DNA of 54,210 nt. It comes from Candidatus Methanoperedens sp. Lineage in GTDB: Bacteria > Patescibacteriota > Microgenomatia > UBA12405. Below are positions 1 through 12,534 of this stretch, piece by piece (positions within the stretch are counted from its first letter, which is position 1; each line of letters begins with the position of its first letter). Below the pieces are notes generated by a model. The model saw nothing but the letters and a program-made list of their open reading frames with translations, had not been told where the DNA came from and did not search any database. The DNA lies in NCBI GenBank assembly GCA_035562735.1, contig DATMWB010000014.1:1-54210 (forward strand). Reading direction: 5' to 3'. A program made the position numbers and the translations under genes.

Positions 1-3000
1 TATGATGAGGCAATAAATTTTAAAGTTGAGAATTATAGAAAACCTGAATATTTTATTGAGGCAGAAAGCAAGGTAATGGAGGTGGTTAGAGGTGATGAGA
101 TTGATGTTGAGGTAAAGGGTGAGTATTTTTCTGGACAACCTTTAAGTTCTGAAGTGGTAAATTATAAAATATTTGCTAGTCAGGGTTTTGGTGATTATGA
201 CTACTATTACCCAATCAGTGCGAGTAATTTTTATCATGCTTGGGGTCAGAATGAGATTGAGACAGGTAGCGTAACTTTGGACAGTAAAGGTAAGGCAAAG
301 GTAAGTTTGGCAACAAACAAAAACGATTCTTTGGGGAAGTATCAGCTGTATTATGTTGAATTTTCATATGCCGATGCCACTGGGAATCAAAATTTAACGG
401 CGGTCAATGTGTTGGTTCGCTCGGGAGAGGTATCGATATACCGTGACAGTGATACAGGATATGGAGGAAAAACTAATCAGAAGTTGGATTTACCCCTGAT
501 TGTTAAGTCAAATCAAAAAGGGGTGAATTTGGCACAAAATATAGAAATTGGTGTGGCCAGGCGTTGGTGGCAAAAATATAATGATGAGAACAGTAAATAT
601 CCACAGTATCGTGAAGAGAAAGAAAATATGGGTAATTTTTTTGTAAACTCGGATAAGAGTGGTAAGGCAGTATTTAGTTTTACTCCAACAAAAGAGGGAA
701 GCTATGAACTGAATACAAAGATGACTGACAAACGAGGTAATGTGGTGGTGAAGACCTTTTATCTTTGGGTTTCTGATAAATATGCAAACTATAAGGGGGA
801 AAACAGTAATTCTACTATAAGGATCACTACTGACAAAAAGAAATATGTCCCTGGGGATAAAGCGATAATAAATATTAGTTCGGATATTCCAGATAGAGAT
901 ATTTATTTTGGAGTAGAAAGAGCGTATCAGGATCGATACCAAGTGGTACACATGAATGGAACTTCAGCTGATGTTGAATTGATGATAAGCGAACATGATA
1001 TGCCAAATATATTTTTGGTAGCAAAATCATTTGAAGTGACGGGACTTCAGGGAGACATTCAGAACGTTGAAGTTGATACCTCTAATAAAAAAATTACTTA
1101 TACAATTAATACTGATAAGAAACTTTATTCTCCAGGAGATGAAGTAACGGTGAATGTTGAGGCACGCGATAAAGCTGGCAATCCTGTTGAGAGTAACTTA
1201 GCGCTGTGGGCGGTTGATAAATCTCTATACTCTTTGGCTGACGTAAATTATGGGGACGTATTTGAAACTTTTTGGCAAAAAAGAGGTGATGAAACCCAAC
1301 AATCACATTCTCTTGAGGGTATTACAGTAATTGGAGGTGCTGAGAAGGGAGGATGTTTTTTGCCAGGGACAAAGGTACTTATGGCTAACAGTATTTCTAA
1401 GCCGATTGAAGATATTAAGGTAGGCGATAAGATTTTGACCCGGGTATCACCAAAGTCAGCAAAAATGATGAAGACAAAGGTGACGGCGTTACACAGTACA
1501 TTTACCATGGGGTATTTTGTGATTAATGCTGAATTAAAGTTGACGGGAAATCATTTATTAATGGTTAATGGTAAGTGGGCTGAGGCAAGAACAATTAGTA
1601 TTGGAGATGAATTGATTGGAATTGGAGATAAAAAAATAATCGTTGATTCGATAGAATTCTTGAATTTACCAAGCAAGGTATACAACCTCACGACTGATAC
1701 TTATCATAGTTTTTTTGCAGAGGGTGTCTATGTTCACAATGATAAGGGTGGGGGTACACGAGATAATTTTGCTGATACGGCATATTGGAATGCATCAATA
1801 AATACAGGAAGTGACGGCCGGACTCAGGTAAAATTCAAATTACCAGATAACCTGACAACGTGGGTTTTAACTACGATTGGGGCATCGAGTGATACCAAGG
1901 CTGGACAGGGTTTTACCGAGATAAAGGTAAGTAAAGATTTGGCAATTAGACCTGTGCTACCAAATGTGTTGGGTGAAAGGGACACGATTACTGTATCAGC
2001 TTTGGTCAATAATTATAGTGAGCTTGAAAGTAAGGCGACAGTAGAATTGGTAACTAATGCCGGTGAGGTTCTAAGCCCCTTGTCACAAAAGGTAGAGGTT
2101 TTAGCAAATGATTTTGTTCAGGTAGTATGGCAGATAAAGGTAGGTGAGGCAAAGGAAAAAGTAAAATTTGAGTTCAAAGTGAATGATGATAAGGGAAGGT
2201 CAGATGCTGTTGTCCAAGAGATAGAGGTACGTAGTATAGGATATTGGGAGCAAAAATCAGACTTTAGGAGTGGGTCATCAACTATTTCTTTGCAAGTGCC
2301 AAATATTGCTTACGATATCAATAAATCAAAGGTTGAAGTTGCTTTGAGTTCAACAGTAATGGGATCCCTACCAACGGCATTGAAGTATTTGATTAATTAT
2401 CCTTATGGCTGTGTTGAACAAACAACGAGTGCTTTGGTACCAAAGTTGATGGCACGGAAATACCCCGTTTTTTTTGCTGAAGCATTGAAATCTGAATCAA
2501 AGTATCAAGTTATGAGTGAAGGTTTTGACAAGTTAAGAGAATTGCAAAATTATGATGGTTCATGGAGCTGGTGGTGGAAGGGGAGTAAACCGGAGGCCTT
2601 TGTTTCGGCCTATGTATTTAGAATTTTAAATGAAGCAAAACTTTTGGGTATAAGTATTGATGAGGGGATGTATAACAAAGCCTTAAGATATCTATCAGAG
2701 AATTTTGATAATGTAGAGTTTGAAAATAAAATCATTAAGGCTTATGGATTGTCTTTTGCTACTGATTCAAAATATCATCGGGGGATAGAAGGTGATTTAT
2801 CAGCTGTGAGTGATGATTTTTTGGCAATGGCGGTGCAGGCAAACTTGACAGCAGGTATAAATGATTCCTCAAAAAGTGGTTTGGATCTTCTTCTAAAAAG
2901 AATGACAGTGACTGATAGTGGGGTCCATTGGAATGCAGGTAGTTTAGAGCGTTTTGGTTCGAAGGAAGCTAGTACTGCTTTGGCAATACAGGCTTTGGCG

Positions 3001-3984
3001 AAAAGTGGTGCCCATCAGGATGTGGCGGCAAAAGCAATAAATTATTTAATGAAGAATCGCTATCATGATTATTGGGGTAGTACTTACACAACTGCCCAGA
3101 CAATATTGGCGATTATTGATTATAGTTTGGCAGTGAAGGAGTCTGAAGCTAACATTTTGTATCGAGTAATGTCTGGCGGCGAACAATTGGCAAGTGGGAT
3201 GTTTAGTGGATCAAAAACTATACCCGCTTTAGTGAATATCGATTTGAAATTGTATGCCAAAAATAAGGAAATTAGGATTGAAAAAAAAGGTGAGGGGGAA
3301 TTATATACGACAGTTAACCAAAAATGGTGGATAAAAGATGCAAAATCACCCGAAGTATCCAATGGAGTTAAAATTGTAAAGACGATTGTAAATGTAAAGG
3401 GCGAGGCTTACAATTTTGTTCCGGGGGACTTGGTGAGAGTGAATTTAGATGTAAGCTTTCCTGATGGAGATAACATTGCTCGGGGATATGCGATTATAGA
3501 GGACCACCTACCTTCAGGATTGGTACCAGTAAATACTAGATTATTAAATGAATCTGACAATCAAAGTGATGATATTTATACGGAAAAGCAATTCTTAAAA
3601 GACGGAGTTATTATCCCTATTTTCTATTCTGGCAATACCCAGCGATTTAGTTACTTGGCAAGGATTATTAATGCTGGAACTTTTTATATGCCTCCGGCCT
3701 ATTATTCACAAATGTACTACCCTGATACTTGGGCGAGGTCAGAGTCATCGAGTTTTATGGTTGAAGATATGATAAGAATTAGTGCATTAAGTGGTATAAA
3801 AGATATCAAGTTAGATTTGAAGAATTACTTGACACTGAAGAATTTAGTCATTGTTATATTTTTTACAGCGATGTTGGGAGCTTTGGCTTTTTGGAAGAAA
3901 AAAAAGTTAAAGAGTATTAAAAATAATGAAGAAACTGAGGCGCCACCAAGAGACGAAACACCTGAATCGAACTCTAGTATTTAG
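1..3984 (+). CDS. Alpha-2-macroglobulin family protein, 5'-truncated by the window edge, with a C-terminal TM anchor
   Basis: Frame 1 is open from nt 1 (YDEAINFKVENYRKPEYFIE...), so the ATG at 76 is internal. Thioester motif GCVEQT lies in YPYGCVEQTTSAL (CVEQ = 2410-2421). Post-bait motif is RDNFADTAYWN. A C-terminal hydrophobic helix LVIVIFFTAMLGALAFW is followed by KKKK. Confidence 0.85.
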   Translation, partial: YDEAINFKVENYRKPEYFIEAESKVMEVVRGDEIDVEVKGEYFSGQPLSSEVVNYKIFASQGFGDYDYYYPISASNFYHAWGQNEIETGSVTLDSKGKAKVSLATNKNDSLGKYQLYYVEFSYADATGNQNLTAVNVLVRSGEVSIYRDSDTGYGGKTNQKLDLPLIVKSNQKGVNLAQNIEIGVARRWWQKYNDENSKYPQYREEKENMGNFFVNSDKSGKAVFSFTPTKEGSYELNTKMTDKRGNVVVKTFYLWVSDKYANYKGENSNSTIRITTDKKKYVPGDKAIINISSDIPDRDIYFGVERAYQDRYQVVHMNGTSADVELMISEHDMPNIFLVAKSFEVTGLQGDIQNVEVDTSNKKITYTINTDKKLYSPGDEVTVNVEARDKAGNPVESNLALWAVDKSLYSLADVNYGDVFETFWQKRGDETQQSHSLEGITVIGGAEKGGCFLPGTKVLMANSISKPIEDIKVGDKILTRVSPKSAKMMKTKVTALHSTFTMGYFVINAELKLTGNHLLMVNGKWAEARTISIGDELIGIGDKKIIVDSIEFLNLPSKVYNLTTDTYHSFFAEGVYVHNDKGGGTRDNFADTAYWNASINTGSDGRTQVKFKLPDNLTTWVLTTIGASSDTKAGQGFTEIKVSKDLAIRPVLPNVLGERDTITVSALVNNYSELESKATVELVTNAGEVLSPLSQKVEVLANDFVQVVWQIKVGEAKEKVKFEFKVNDDKGRSDAVVQEIEVRSIGYWEQKSDFRSGSSTISLQVPNIAYDINKSKVEVALSSTVMGSLPTALKYLINYPYGCVEQTTSALVPKLMARKYPVFFAEALKSESKYQVMSEGFDKLRELQNYDGSWSWWWKGSKPEAFVSAYVFRILNEAKLLGISIDEGMYNKALRYLSENFDNVEFENKIIKAYGLSFATDSKYHRGIEGDLSAVSDDFLAMAVQANLTAGINDSSKSGLDLLLKRMTVTDSGVHWNAGSLERFGSKEASTALAIQALAKSGAHQDVAAKAINYLMKNRYHDYWGSTYTTAQTILAIIDYSLAVKESEANILYRVMSGGEQLASGMFSGSKTIPALVNIDLKLYAKNKEIRIEKKGEGELYTTVNQKWWIKDAKSPEVSNGVKIVKTIVNVKGEAYNFVPGDLVRVNLDVSFPDGDNIARGYAIIEDHLPSGLVPVNTRLLNESDNQSDDIYTEKQFLKDGVIIPIFYSGNTQRFSYLARIINAGTFYMPPAYYSQMYYPDTWARSESSSFMVEDMIRISALSGIKDIKLDLKNYLTLKNLVIVIFFTAMLGALAFWKKKKLKSIKNNEETEAPPRDETPESNSSI
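1354..1740 (+). other. Hint / intein-like domain (129 aa) inserted in-frame in the A2M
   Basis: Starts with Cys (CFLPGTKVLM, block A). It has the TxxH block B (LTGNHLLMV), block F (VYNLTTDTYHSFFAEG) and terminal block G (VYVHN). The next residue is Asp, not Cys/Ser/Thr. The flanks are similar: ..EKGG before and DKGGG.. after. Confidence 0.8.
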
Positions 3985-4708
3985 TTTTGGGTTGTTGTTT
4001 TTGTTTTTATTGGTGTCTTTTTTGAAAGATCGCTTTACTGGTAGTGAAATGACTCCAAAGATAAGGGGGGCAATAGTAACTCATCATGAGGTAGCCCAAG
4101 AGTTGATGATTGATTTGGGAAAAAAGATATCTAATCAGGGTAGAGTTTTATCAAATATTATCATTGTGGGTCCGAATCATGATGAACTCGGAGGAGGAAA
4201 CTTGTTGAGTGATGATGAATTATTAGTTTATAAAAGTGAGAAATTAATTACTCATGATGAAGTTGTAGTAAATAGGGATCACGCTTGTTTTGCCCCAAGA
4301 TCTGTATTGCAAAAATATTTACCAAACACAAAAATATCATGTATCTTAGTTAGTAGTCGGACGCGAGAAGAAGAAATTAAAAAAATAGTGGAGATCTTAA
4401 AATCGAGCTTAGGGGAAGACGGAGTGTTGGTGGCCTCTGTTGATTTTTCCCATTACCTACCACTTCGAGATGCTTTGGAAAAGGATTCTATAACTTGGAA
4501 GTACATTGAAGAGTTTGATGTGGAGGCATTACAAAAACTGAATAATGACCATTTAGATTCTCCTAAAACGATGGCGATACTTTTTGAATATTTGAAGAAT
4601 ATTGGGGCGATGAATTTTTCAAAAGTAAAACATGTTAATTCGGCTCAAATATTGGGAACACTTGATAGTTCATCAACAACAAGTTATTTCGAGGTTATTT
4701 ATTGGTAG
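3926..4708 (+). CDS. Memo-like / AmmeMemoRadiSam system protein B-like protein with an N-terminal TM helix
   Basis: Motifs IVGPNHDE and VASVDFSHYLP resemble the GPxH and DxSHY metal-site motifs of the Memo/LigB-like superfamily. The N-terminal hydrophobic segment is LVFSFGLLFLFLLVSFL. The start is uncertain because it overlaps the A2M by 59 nt. Confidence 0.5.
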   Translation: MKKLRRHQETKHLNRTLVFSFGLLFLFLLVSFLKDRFTGSEMTPKIRGAIVTHHEVAQELMIDLGKKISNQGRVLSNIIIVGPNHDELGGGNLLSDDELLVYKSEKLITHDEVVVNRDHACFAPRSVLQKYLPNTKISCILVSSRTREEEIKKIVEILKSSLGEDGVLVASVDFSHYLPLRDALEKDSITWKYIEEFDVEALQKLNNDHLDSPKTMAILFEYLKNIGAMNFSKVKHVNSAQILGTLDSSSTTSYFEVIYW

Positions 4709-9036: not shown

Positions 9037-12000
9037 ATGAAAAGTATTAAAAGAAATTGGTTTTTTGTGGTTTTGGTTTTATTTTTTGCTTTGATATTGG
9101 GAGAAAGAAAGGTTGTATTTGGAGTTGAAAGACCTCCAATACTTCAAGAGGAGAAAACTAGTATTGATAACAAAGCTTATGTTGCAGGAGAGGTGGTCGT
9201 TAAATTTAAAAAAGATAAAATAAATCTAAATTCAACTTTTTCTTTGACAAGTCAGGTAAGGAAATTGATATTTGATTTAACAAATGGTTATGAAACTGGA
9301 GACACAATAAAAAGTGGTAACATTGTTGTCCTAAAGATTGGTGAAGGTCAGCAGGTTGATGAGGTCATTAACACTTTAATGTCCGATCCAAATGTGGAAT
9401 ATGCTGAGCCGAATTATTATCAACAACTTACTACTTTGAGTTTAAATGATACATATAAGGATAATCTTTGGGGTTTGGATAACTTTGGACAGAGTATAAC
9501 TTTGGGAAGTGGATTAACGGCTATTGGGACTAGCGGTGCGGATATTGATGTTCGACGAGCTTGGGCTTTGACAACGGGGAGTACGGAAGTAGTAGTGGCG
9601 GTGATTGATTCTGGGGTGGCATATAATCATCCAGATTTGAGTGGGGTAATGTGGGATGGAACAAGTTGTAAAGATGAAGACGGAAATGCTTTAGGCGGAT
9701 GTTTACATGGTTATGATTATCGATACGATAGTGAAGACAATGATCCATTGCCAACTGATAGTTCTCACGGAACACATGTTGCGGGAACTATCGCTGCTGA
9801 GAGAAACAACAGTAAAGGTATTGCAGGAGTGGCCCCAAATGTGAAAATAATGGCTCTTAAATTTGATTTAAGCTCAACTGCGGCAGCAAAGGCAATTGAT
9901 TTTGCAACCCAAAATGGAGTAAAGATCATTAACGCAAGCTGGGGGGGTAATTCTCCCTCATCAACAATTTATGACGCTATAGTCAGGTTTGAAACGGCTG
10001 GAGGTATTTTTGTGGCTGCAGCAGGAAATGAAGGAGAAGATAATGAATCGGTTCATCATTATCCATCTGATTATACTTTGAGTAACATTGTGGCAGTGGC
10101 GGCAACAGATCAAAATGATTTATTGGCTGATTTTTCAAATTTTGGTAGTACCTCAGTTGATGTGGCGGCACCGGGTGTAGATATATATAGTACGATTGAT
10201 GAGGCGGCGTTAATCGATTACGACTTTAATTCTATTGGTGGTGGATCTCTTCCTTCAACTTGGACTTCTGATCTTGGTGCTAGTTGGGGAGCATATAATT
10301 TAGGTGGTACTGGTACAGTGAATATGGCAATTTATGGAGATTTAAATTATCCCTATGTTGAAGGGGTTGATTCTTATGTGACATCAGATACTGTAAATTT
10401 GTCAACAGTATCAAATGCAAAGTTTAGTTTTTCCGCGGCGTGTGATACAGAAAATACAGATCCTTTGCTTGGGGGTGATTTTATGGCTCTTGAAGTTAGT
10501 GGTAATGGAACAACCTTTACTGAGATAGCAAGATGGAATGAATATTCTCTAACTGCATTAGGGGCTGTGCCTGGGTATTATTATACTTATGAAGTTGGTA
10601 TAAGTGCTTCAGATTTGACTAGTAATTTTAAATATAGATTGAGATGGACGACGGATACAGATGGAAGTTATGGAGGAGGAGATGGCTGTAAGGTTGATAA
10701 CTTTGAAATTATTACTTATACGGATGGTTCAGATGAGTTGTATGACTTTTATCAGGGAACTTCGATGGCGGCTCCTCATGTAGCTGGTTTGGCTGGATAT
10801 TTATGGTCAATAGCTCCGTCAGCTTCAATGAGCGATATTATTAGCAATATATTAGGTAATGGAGATACTTTAGCGTCACTGGCTGGTAAGACGTCGACAG
10901 GTAGAAGAATTAATGCTTATAACTCTGTAGTAAGTTTGGGGGTTACTGCTCCAGCCGGTCCATCGGTGACAGGTTTGAGTAATGATGCAGTGGCTGCCAA
11001 GAGTAAAACATTTACTTGGAGCTCAGCAACCCCATCCACTGACGGCTATCGTTTTTCTATTGATCAGTCAGTATCTGGCGTGCCTACTGGAAGTTATAGT
11101 GTGGGTCTAACTGGGACTACATATTCAAGTGGTGACGGAACTTTTTATATTCATGTTCAGGCACAAGACGCTGATTTAGCTGAAGGGGCGGTATCAACAG
11201 CCTCATTTATTTTGGATAATACGGGTCCTGAGGCAAGCGTAACTAGTAGTGCTACAAATTTGTTTATCTTATCCTTTGGTGAGACATTGTATAGCGATGT
11301 TGGTGCAACCTTTGCCATTGGAACTGATGTGGCTAGTAGATTTGCCGTAAGTTCAGAAATTGGAATTTCTGAAGCTCTTGTGGCTGGTAGTGAGAGTATA
11401 AGTATAGGTGTAACTGGAACACCACTGGCTGGGACGAATGTAAATTTACTTTCAGGAACAGCAACAAATAATTTTTATGATTATTTAACAAATGCAGGTG
11501 GAACTTTGGCTGTATTTTATGATGGTGATGCATGGCAGGCAAATCCAACCGCTTTAAATGTGGCGACAAGTCATTTTCCAGATTTAATTACCACAGGCCA
11601 ACTGACTTTGGGAGGAAGTGCTCCTGAGACGGCTACGTCAATTACAGCAGCAAATAATTTAACATTAAATATTGGGGGTACTGGGGCAAACAGTAGTGTT
11701 GGCTTGACACTGGGGACTATTATTACTGAACTAAATGATGCGGTATTTAACGCAAATCTAATATCTGGAACGCAAGTTGATGTGTCAACAATATCCGGTC
11801 TTGAGGTGGGTTACACAGCGGCTGGAGCGATTCAGTGGGGTATTACTGGAACAACACTGAAATTTAGTCAACCAATAATTGTAAGTATTTATCTTGGATC
11901 GGCCTATGATTCACAAACTTTATATGTTTATCGTTCCGAATCTTTGTCAGTAGGTTGGACTAGTACTGGGTTATCGTCACCAACCTGTGTAGTTAGTAGT

Positions 12001-12534
12001 GGTTATTGCTCTTTTGCAGCGACTCAAGCGTCTTATTTCTTGGCGGCATCGTCAGCAACGCCGACCCCAACTCCAAGTCCAACTTCTGCACCAACATCTG
12101 CACCGAGTAATGATAGTGGAAGTAACAATCAATCATCTGGGCCACCGGAAGCACCAAGATGCAACGACAGAATTCCAATATTTGCACCTGATTTGTTTAG
12201 AATTACTACTTCAAAAGGTAGTGCTAAGATTATTTTTACTCCGGTTAATGAACAAATTACGGGATATGCCGTCATGTATGGTCATAAGAAAGGTGATGAA
12301 AGGTATGCGGCTATATTTAGTCCCATAAATAACAATGAAGGGGAGCAGAGTTTTACTGTTAATAAGTTAAACCCAAAGATTACGTATTATTTTAAAGTTA
12401 CAGCATTCAACGGTTGTGTGTCTGGACCTTGGTCAGATTGGATTCCAGCAAAACCAGACAGGAAAAGAGAGATACATAAATACAAAACAGTAATAAAAAA
12501 TAAGGTTAAGACTTTAGTTAATAGATTTCTTTAA
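9037..12534 (+). CDS. Secreted S8 (subtilisin-like) serine peptidase with an inserted domain and a long C-terminal extension
   Basis: Signal peptide. Catalytic motifs VAVIDSGV (Asp), HGTHVAGTIAA (His), AAAGNEG (oxyanion Asn) and GTSMAAPHVAG (Ser). An insert of about 180 aa sits between APGVDIYS and GTSMAAPH. A PT-rich linker (ATPTPTPSPTSAPTSAPS) precedes an FN3-like end. Confidence 0.9.
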   Translation: MKSIKRNWFFVVLVLFFALILGERKVVFGVERPPILQEEKTSIDNKAYVAGEVVVKFKKDKINLNSTFSLTSQVRKLIFDLTNGYETGDTIKSGNIVVLKIGEGQQVDEVINTLMSDPNVEYAEPNYYQQLTTLSLNDTYKDNLWGLDNFGQSITLGSGLTAIGTSGADIDVRRAWALTTGSTEVVVAVIDSGVAYNHPDLSGVMWDGTSCKDEDGNALGGCLHGYDYRYDSEDNDPLPTDSSHGTHVAGTIAAERNNSKGIAGVAPNVKIMALKFDLSSTAAAKAIDFATQNGVKIINASWGGNSPSSTIYDAIVRFETAGGIFVAAAGNEGEDNESVHHYPSDYTLSNIVAVAATDQNDLLADFSNFGSTSVDVAAPGVDIYSTIDEAALIDYDFNSIGGGSLPSTWTSDLGASWGAYNLGGTGTVNMAIYGDLNYPYVEGVDSYVTSDTVNLSTVSNAKFSFSAACDTENTDPLLGGDFMALEVSGNGTTFTEIARWNEYSLTALGAVPGYYYTYEVGISASDLTSNFKYRLRWTTDTDGSYGGGDGCKVDNFEIITYTDGSDELYDFYQGTSMAAPHVAGLAGYLWSIAPSASMSDIISNILGNGDTLASLAGKTSTGRRINAYNSVVSLGVTAPAGPSVTGLSNDAVAAKSKTFTWSSATPSTDGYRFSIDQSVSGVPTGSYSVGLTGTTYSSGDGTFYIHVQAQDADLAEGAVSTASFILDNTGPEASVTSSATNLFILSFGETLYSDVGATFAIGTDVASRFAVSSEIGISEALVAGSESISIGVTGTPLAGTNVNLLSGTATNNFYDYLTNAGGTLAVFYDGDAWQANPTALNVATSHFPDLITTGQLTLGGSAPETATSITAANNLTLNIGGTGANSSVGLTLGTIITELNDAVFNANLISGTQVDVSTISGLEVGYTAAGAIQWGITGTTLKFSQPIIVSIYLGSAYDSQTLYVYRSESLSVGWTSTGLSSPTCVVSSGYCSFAATQASYFLAASSATPTPTPSPTSAPTSAPSNDSGSNNQSSGPPEAPRCNDRIPIFAPDLFRITTSKGSAKIIFTPVNEQITGYAVMYGHKKGDERYAAIFSPINNNEGEQSFTVNKLNPKITYYFKVTAFNGCVSGPWSDWIPAKPDRKREIHKYKTVIKNKVKTLVNRFL

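Follow-up and report, generated by a model that had tools for sequence, protein, structure and literature searches.

Must a macroglobulin-type trap wait for a protease, or can it carry the means of processing its own trigger loop? For alpha-2-macroglobulin (A2M), C3 and TEP proteins alike, the accepted view is that an external protease has to cut the bait or anaphylatoxin (ANA) site. The question is raised by contig DATMWB010000014.1, analysed here as a window of 54,210 nucleotides, in which an A2M family gene holds a Hint domain at positions 1354-1740, in frame 1 of the forward strand; the open reading frame (ORF) is open from the left window edge and reaches its stop at 3984. The domain, very probably self-cutting, is conserved in the trigger loop of this large surface A2M in hundreds of ultra-small bacteria (Patescibacteria), so that the trap may need no outside protease to mature or fire. 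An earlier interpretation made from the DNA letters (the sequence-only reading) had proposed such an intein-like insertion, and all of its coordinates, including those of the CVEQ thioester motif (2410-2421), proved exact. Our analysis indicates that the domain is almost certainly a conserved type-A bacterial intein-like (BIL) domain located at the bait position.

The Hint domain and its place in the bait loop

The Hint segment begins with CFLPGTKVLM, holds TGNH and VYNL...YHSFFAEG, and ends in VHN, after which comes Asp581 (1741-1743). Searched on its own, it matched PT-HINT (PF07591) at 49.5 bits, where the cut-off is 27.7, with an E-value of 6.5e-13 (in the full protein the match covers aa 467-581), and it passed the cut-off of the NCBIfam model TIGR01443 (intein_Cterm), while a match to Hint_2 (PF13403), a family that we take to be type-B-like, fell below threshold (E 0.0078). 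A sequence search of the PDB returned 2LWY, a "bacterial intein-like domain" from Clostridium thermocellum, at E 3e-9, or 3.6e-16 when a profile was used. In an AlphaFold model of aa 434-600, the model confidence (pLDDT) is 93-98 across the Hint domain and below 50 in both flanks. Foldseek ranked BIL2 of the Tetrahymena thermophila BUBL polyubiquitin-like locus (6Y75/6TMM, E 2e-11) first, followed by 2LWY (E 1.4e-10, TM 0.85), above canonical inteins and Hedgehog, with TM scores of 0.74-0.85 for the top BIL matches. The sequence-only reading had recognised all splicing blocks and a BIL-type domain; the profile hits and the PDB match bear out the former, and the sequence and Foldseek matches agree with the latter and place the domain in type A.

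Type-A BILs end in His-Asn, have no nucleophile at +1, and combine an N-terminal thioester with Asn cyclisation (PMC4031507, PMC7664689). The C-terminal His-Asn of block G sets them apart from type-B BILs, which show no similarity to intein block G (PMC4031507), and the VHN terminus rules out a type-B assignment here. The domain in the window has the HINT fold, Cys1, Thr-x-x-His, a C-terminal His-Asn, a non-nucleophilic +1 residue and a PF07591 match above threshold. With type-A BILs such as C. thermocellum BIL4 (2LWY) it shares a Hint fold of about 130 residues, Cys1, TxxH, a VYN block F and the terminal His-Asn, as well as the lack of a +1 nucleophile and of an endonuclease; the hosts in both cases are secreted or surface proteins, and the region that holds the domain is variable. 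It differs from them in its A2M host, where it sits in the activation loop, in its flanks (Gly-Gly at -2/-1 and Lys at +2, both near-invariant), and in its distribution, since type-A BILs occur sporadically whereas this insertion is fixed and co-diverging across a superphylum.

Canonical inteins occupy conserved sites of essential proteins, mostly of replication and repair, and are sporadically distributed. That the domain is an ordinary class-1 mini-intein with canonical splicing is hardly credible, even though Cys1, TxxH and the terminal HN would suit one. The +1 residue is Asp, as the sequence-only reading had stressed in calling it non-nucleophilic, and no family member has Cys or Thr there, while Ser occurs in 5 of about 322 sequences. 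Block F has Asn instead of Asp, the best matches are to BIL and PT-HINT rather than intein families, and the insertion, near-universal within the clade and co-diverging, lies in a variable loop, rich in Gly, of an A2M that is a non-essential surface protein. Based on the +1 Asp, the block F Asn, the BIL/PT-HINT matches and the insertion site, we rejected a canonical class-1 intein.

Placement in the bait region rests on alignment to human A2M. Using phmmer, VYVHNDKGGGTRDNFADTAYW was aligned to human A2M VHVEEPHTETVRKYFPETWIW, so that R587 corresponds to R732 and F590 to F735. Both human residues are conserved and, as part of alpha'NT, act as the plug of the MG2-MG3-LNK channel (PMC9352918). 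The Hint domain ends 7 residues ahead of the alpha'NT Arg of this Arg-x-x-Phe motif, and the bait itself consists of a short Gly-rich linker plus the Hint domain. From Asn580 to the thioester Cys804 we measured 224 aa, in line with the earlier figure of about 220, and the alignment places the insertion directly before RDNFADTAYW of a thioester-bearing A2M, as the sequence-only reading had claimed. In a comparison of the family profile with the E. coli A2M (ECAM), ECAM residues 882-937 (56 residues) lie opposite the linker-Hint-linker segment. A larger AlphaFold model of 1196 aa likewise shows a confident Hint domain between low-confidence linkers (aa 439-449 and aa 582-594) at the bait site.

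Together these observations show, or strongly imply, that the Hint domain sits where A2M has its unstructured bait and where C3, C4 and C5 have ANA, the topological position being the same, from the LNK/MG6 segment to alpha'NT. In C3, C4 and C5 a folded ANA domain occupies the bait site; cleavage at the bait/ANA site releases alpha'NT and triggers the conformational change, and in A2M the bait sequence is irrelevant, the trigger being bait discontinuity acting through alpha'NT retraction (PMC9352918). ANA thus offers a precedent for a folded domain tolerated at the bait site, although the Hint fold is unrelated to it. Moreover, bait and ANA play a passive part and are cut by external proteases (furin, convertases), whereas the Hint domain brings its own predicted bond-breaking chemistry at both ends.

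Searches of the openly available full-text literature turned up no account of a Hint, BIL or intein domain in any A2M. A2Ms of the candidate phyla radiation (CPR) are mentioned there just as large membrane proteins and putative host-protease inhibitors (PMC8080830, PMC9793634). The sequences themselves are already public under generic names, and precomputed Pfam annotation lists both Hint and A2M domains. What is new is the type-A BIL in the context of an A2M trigger loop; the domain type itself is known.

Conservation, inheritance and loss across the family

The insertion is widespread. A GTDB scan with one genome per species gave 449 relatives, from which 80 loci were kept, all of them spanning the Hint domain. 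In a library of 1.84 billion proteins clustered at 50% identity, 667 proteins were found at E <= 1e-30; when the best 150 clusters were compared with a profile of the Hint domain and its flanks, at least 145 matched it without interruption over its whole length. Among the best full-length homologs, 115 of 120 contain the Hint domain. The insertion thus occupies one and the same site in no fewer than 80 GTDB species and 145 or more clusters, nearly all of them labelled Patescibacteria. Named lineages are mostly Patescibacteria/CPR (Shapiro-, Davies-, Woyke-, Morani-, Pacei-, Peregrini- and Saccharibacteria, and WWE3). The closest relative is a Shapirobacteria metagenome-assembled genome (MAG) at 75% identity, and the host bacterium is shown, or strongly inferred, to be a Shapirobacteria-like member of the Patescibacteria. 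Many loci (L004, L007, L010, L015, L034, L055 and others) come from MAGs labelled Gammaproteobacteria, Pseudomonadales, Bdellovibrionales, Nevskiaceae, Micavibrio or Limnocylindrales. Their GC content is mostly CPR-like (0.38-0.45 in the six listed by name, 0.55 in the Bdellovibrionales-labelled L033), and the A2M sequences of these loci are CPR-like; the labels are probably mis-binned or wrong.

Junction conservation was scored over about 320 Hint-bearing sequences, 296 of them unique at the junction. Cys1 is present in 322/322; block B has His in 323/323, with Thr in 319 and Ser in 4; the block-F Asn occurs in 323/324; and both the penultimate His and the terminal Asn of block G are found in 324/324. 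Outside the domain, Gly occupies -1 in 324/327 and Gly-Gly at -2/-1 is near-invariant, Lys occupies +2 in 319/322 as part of a near-invariant x-Lys-Gly at +1 to +3, and the alpha'NT Arg (R587) is present in 323/323. The +1 position varies (Q137, D91, E47, G26, N9, S5, K4, A3, L1; Cys 0, Thr 0), and so does -3, where 76 sequences include G43, K8, R8 and M5. The sequence-only reading had taken EKGG and DKGGG for a duplicated or preferred insertion site: the Gly-Gly and the x-Lys-Gly indeed hold almost throughout the family, but the Lys at -3 (8/76) does not.

Such conservation bears on a further possibility, that the Hint domain stays in place as a folded, ANA-like bait or binding module which does no chemistry of its own in situ and whose linkers are cut by external proteases. 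The folded ANA domain sets a precedent for this site, and the flexible, low-confidence linkers on both sides hold Lys and Arg. This reading would leave unexplained why the catalytic residues are invariant over some 320 diverged sequences, and we regard it as very unlikely.

Mean pairwise identity is 49% for the Hint domain and 42% for the body of the protein, the two sets of distances correlate (r = 0.74), and the GC content of the Hint segment (0.362) shows no anomaly beside the remaining gene (0.377). A Hint domain at least as conserved as the body, distances that run in parallel and matching GC content indicate an old, vertically inherited insertion under constraint. A recent mobile insertion was ruled out by the GC content, the correlation of Hint and host distances, the lack of an endonuclease and the identical junction in all relatives. 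A predicted self-processing module has been placed, and long kept, exactly at the bait/ANA site in a large and ancient bacterial clade. In one relative, a 311-kb contig carrying P0002, the Hint-A2M gene (L001, 9001-12717) is split into ORFs of 302, 481, 134, 112 and 96 aa and represents either a pseudogene or assembly frameshifts.

Two kinds of exception are informative. First, five close homologs have no Hint domain and instead a loop of the form AEKGGGGG(G)xxR, 17-19 residues long, compared with summed linkers of 17-20 residues in Hint-bearing proteins; all five come from Logan assemblies, with P0249 and P0254 from two sequencing runs. A neighbour-joining tree of the protein body scatters them over no fewer than two positions within the Hint-bearing proteins, and they are monophyletic in 0/100 bootstraps, which suggests that they represent secondary, near-precise losses. 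The lost unit comprises the Hint domain plus "x-K": this pair is missing from Hint-less loops and strictly co-occurs with the Hint domain, so that the +2 Lys appears to be part of the Hint module. Second, CxEQ was recognised in 277 relatives with a Hint domain, but no fewer than 20 Hint-bearing representatives have neither CxEQ nor a Pfam match to the thioester domain (TED). Thioester loss was called by hidden Markov model, MAFFT and Pfam together, as a regular expression gave many false losses. The thioester-less, Hint-bearing clade comprises P0098, P0099, P0103, P0111, P0117, P0119 and P0138-P0154, with loci L071 and L072, and in many of its members the Hint Cys1 is the single Cys in about 1700 aa. 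Thioester-less Hint-bearers and nested Hint-less relatives together imply that the role of the Hint domain is not tied solely to the TED thioester.

Related Hint domains also occur in other proteins, which are probably of CPR origin as well. P0136 (1132 aa) has five tandem Hint domains with spacers of just KG, KGG or KGGG, plus a Tim44-like domain; P0126 (3399 aa) is a giant PKD/Ig protein with three; and P0006 (396 aa), which resembles a type-IV pilin and has the N_methyl motif, carries one at its very C-terminus, a Hedgehog-like layout. Tandem CPR Hint domains are separated by HN/KG(G)(G)/CF (slashes mark the domain boundaries). This Hint clade carries its own Gly/Lys flanks and is widely used in CPR secreted proteins.

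Probable self-excision and the fate of the flanks

We infer autocatalytic activity of the Hint domain from its invariant catalytic residues, which make it very probably competent for self-excision. After export and folding, Cys452 would form a thioester with Gly451 through an N-S acyl shift helped by Thr515 and His518. Asn580, helped by His579, would cyclise, and the 129-aa Hint domain would be released. In the reading that we tentatively prefer, an amine would then re-join the ends: residue 581 could supply its newly freed alpha-NH2, or Lys582 its epsilon-NH2. This would yield an unbroken A2M, still spring-loaded, in which a short bait of Gly, Lys and Arg is as long as the Hint-less loop, and the Hint domain would act as a removable pro-segment or a fixed passenger rather than as a trigger.

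Re-ligation of the flanks after excision is the outcome that we tentatively prefer, at somewhat less than an even chance. Our leaning derives from several observations: both chemistries are kept everywhere; plain-loop relatives are nested at no fewer than two places and are apparently viable; and the Hint domain is retained in thioester-less members. An unligated product would, furthermore, be a spent trap, since bait discontinuity alone collapses A2M (PMC9352918). Re-ligation is also favoured by the match between the summed linkers and the Hint-less loop in length, and by precedent, as amine ligation is known in type-A BILs and isopeptide formation in BIL2 (PMC4031507, PMC8616854). In type-A BILs the flanks can be ligated by aminolysis, in which the freed amine attacks the thioester (PMC4031507). 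The sequence-only reading, which held that such domains cleave rather than splice, was accordingly too strong: cleavage does dominate in assays, but type-A BILs can ligate without a +1 nucleophile (PMC4031507). If re-ligation does take place, this would be natural and widespread nucleophile-free splicing (amine-mediated, possibly isopeptide) in a secreted protein, and the domain would be a novel kind of pro-domain in a spring-loaded trap.

Four points weigh against re-ligation. Type-A BILs mostly yield cleavage products in assays (PMC7664689, PMC4031507). A negative correlation between the lengths of the N- and C-side linkers would favour ligation, and the compensation seen is weak (Spearman -0.18, p 0.001; Pearson -0.07, not significant; kinship ignored). 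A neutral passenger in an indel-tolerant loop should be lost more often than in about 4% of cases. Finally, CPR Hint domains at C-termini or in tandem, where splicing would be senseless, suggest that the clade serves as a cleavage or transfer module.

Alternatively, the Hint domain may be an autocatalytic trigger. It would cut at one junction or at both and leave the ends unjoined; the break would release the alpha'NT plug, so that the A2M changes conformation with no protease involved. The TED thioester, where present, would be exposed to nearby nucleophiles, and the two chains would be held together non-covalently, much as if a convertase were built in. Several features fit this possibility, which we consider rather less probable than re-ligation. 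Characterised BILs mostly cleave; the domain takes the ANA/bait place, with its C-junction 7 residues from the alpha'NT Arg; bait discontinuity suffices to set off A2M (PMC9352918); and the domain is strongly retained and rarely lost despite the indel tolerance of the loop. Yet a single cut would suffice, and neither reaction centre varies. A trap of 1700 aa would be wasted if it fired without regulation; to account for the nested plain-loop relatives, triggering would have had to switch at least twice between the domain itself and a protease; the Hint domain persists in thioester-less members; and an interchain disulfide is impossible in a protein with two Cys only. The autocatalytic arming of the thioester put forward by the sequence-only reading may occur but is not favoured, given the nested Hint-less relatives and the 20 or more Hint-bearers without a thioester. 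If cleavage is nevertheless the outcome, this would be the first self-triggering member of the A2M/complement superfamily.

The top structural match of the Hint domain raises yet another alternative. BUBL BIL2 (6Y75/6TMM) is reported to ligate the Gly-Gly C-terminus of its N-extein to the epsilon-amine of Lys, forming an isopeptide (PMC8616854), and like the domain in the window it has a basic-Gly-Gly N-extein end before Cys1 (EKGG/C-F here, RGG/(C1A)-F in BIL2). For the BIL2 acceptor Lys, the conserved Lys582 after the Hint domain is a candidate counterpart only. The two differ in that BIL2 is eukaryotic with ubiquitin-like exteins, while here the exteins are macroglobulin (MG) domains, and their identity is 22%; Zn-dependent activation is reported for BIL2. 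A trans-acyl transfer resembling that of BIL2 or Hedgehog, in which an external nucleophile (Lys, a cell-wall amine or a lipid) attacks the Gly-Gly thioester at the N-junction, would leave the N-terminal A2M part of about 800 aa covalently attached to a partner or host surface. In keeping with such a transfer, BIL2 conjugates its GG C-terminus to Lys of several substrates (PMC8616854), the family N-flank [K/R/G]-G-G/C-F aligns to R-G-G/(C1A)-F, the Hint Cys is the sole Cys of thioester-less members, and a CPR pilin-like protein has a similar Hint domain at its extreme C-terminus. Hedgehog-type transfer, however, needs neither the terminal Asn nor the +2 Lys, and both are kept (324/324 and 319/322); there is no known acceptor, and the N-extein is an MG domain rather than a ubiquitin fold. 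We judge this transfer to be quite improbable.

Only slightly more plausible, and still unlikely, is a single-turnover, ubiquitin-like conjugation device within an immune-type trap. Here the Gly-Gly thioester would pass to Lys582 in cis (an isopeptide splice) or to a Lys of a partner or host surface in trans, while cyclisation of Asn580 would free the alpha'NT plug and fire the A2M without a protease. Were this correct, CPR episymbionts would own a self-arming, covalently attaching, complement-like protein, and members of the thioester-less clade would have no warhead other than the Hint thioester; an isopeptide formed in cis to Lys582 would be a new form of protein splicing.

Re-ligation, our tentative preference, and cleavage alike bear on the plug-in-channel trigger and on the dealings of CPR episymbionts with their hosts. 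In addition, a Hint domain with GG and xKG flanks could serve protein engineering as a module.

The host protein and its gene neighbourhood

The host is a protein of the A2M/thioester-containing superfamily, with BRD, A2M, TED and C-terminal MG domains and a CxEQ motif; its features are collected in the table below, to which we add a TED Pfam match at aa 786-901. The part of the protein beyond the window can be judged from P0156, a complete homolog of 1674 aa that is 79% identical and has an N-terminal signal or anchor. The C-terminal helix and basic tail recur in P0156 and in Hint-less homologs. An N-terminal signal or anchor in P0156 and a C-terminal helix followed by KKKK imply that the host A2M is extracytoplasmic and membrane-tethered.

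Features of the A2M family gene and of the gene directly downstream (window coordinates; aa numbering of the part of the protein inside the window)
Feature	Position	Strand	Evidence or remark
A2M family gene, 3' part: 1327 codons + stop	1..3984	+	about 347 N-terminal codons beyond window edge
A2M_BRD (bait-region domain), aa 273-412	817..1236	+	Pfam E 8.9e-15
N-side linker HSLEGITVIGGAEKGG, ending in near-invariant Gly-Gly (-2/-1)	1306..1353	+	pLDDT <50 at aa 439-449
Type-A BIL / PT-HINT domain (almost certain), 129 aa, without endonuclease insert	1354..1740	+	profile, sequence and structure matches
Cys452, Hint Cys1, predicted N-S acyl-shift nucleophile	1354..1356 (TGT)	+	family conservation
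Block B TGNH, Thr515 to His518	1543..1554	+	family conservation
Block F VYNL; Asn at the usual class-1 intein Asp position, as in BIL 2LWY	1678..1689	+	
Block G VHN; Asn580 (codon AAT, 1738-1740), predicted cyclising residue	1732..1740	+	
C-side linker DKGGGT: +1 Asp581, +2 Lys582, +3 Gly	1741..1758	+	
alpha'NT-like motif RDNFADTAYW	1759..1788	+	alignment to human A2M
A2M (PF00207) domain, aa 593-683	1777..2049	+	Pfam E 1e-17
Thioester motif CVEQ, Cys804 to Gln807, within TED	2410..2421	+	sequence, Pfam
bMG10 domain, aa 1131-1242	3391..3726	+	Pfam E 4.2e-15
Hydrophobic C-terminal helix NLVIVIFFTAMLGALAFW, then KKKKLKS: membrane anchor and cytoplasmic tail	3841..3915	+	sequence
Memo-like (PF01875) protein gene, N-terminal hydrophobic anchor	3926..4708	+	directly 3' of A2M gene, overlapping its end

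For the AlphaFold model of 1196 aa the pLDDT is 83.5, and its best Foldseek matches are native ECAM (5A42) and Salmonella SaA2M (4U48), both at E of about 1e-46, among full-model matches that also include A2ML1, C5 and TEP1. The host shares with bacterial thioester A2Ms such as E. coli ECAM/YfhM and SaA2M the order MG-BRD-A2M-TED(CxEQ)-MG10 and membrane tethering, but is only about 14% identical to them, is anchored by a C-terminal transmembrane helix and has a Memo-like neighbour gene. The reported partner of enterobacterial A2Ms is PBP1c. The protein is extremely Cys-poor: its 1327 aa contain just two Cys, Cys452 of the Hint domain and Cys804 of the thioester motif, both of them thioester-forming residues. 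Over 201 full-length homologs the modal Cys count is likewise 2, and in Hint-less homologs it is 1.

The Memo-like gene follows the A2M gene in 53 of the 80 GTDB loci and also lies 3' of Hint-less CPR A2Ms, a recurrence that makes the pair look like a conserved operon. Further pairs include L082 (8596-9534), where a PGA_cap gene comes next, and L083 (5824-6765). Across the window (1-54210), no tRNA gene or Rfam family reached threshold. About 5 kb 3' of the A2M gene, on the forward strand (9037-12534), lies a gene for an S8 subtilase of 1165 aa with a fervidolysin-like prodomain and an fn3 domain. A copy of this subtilase, 62% identical, adjoins the A2M gene in the closest relative (L002), and subtilase and A2M may possibly form a protease/trap pairing.

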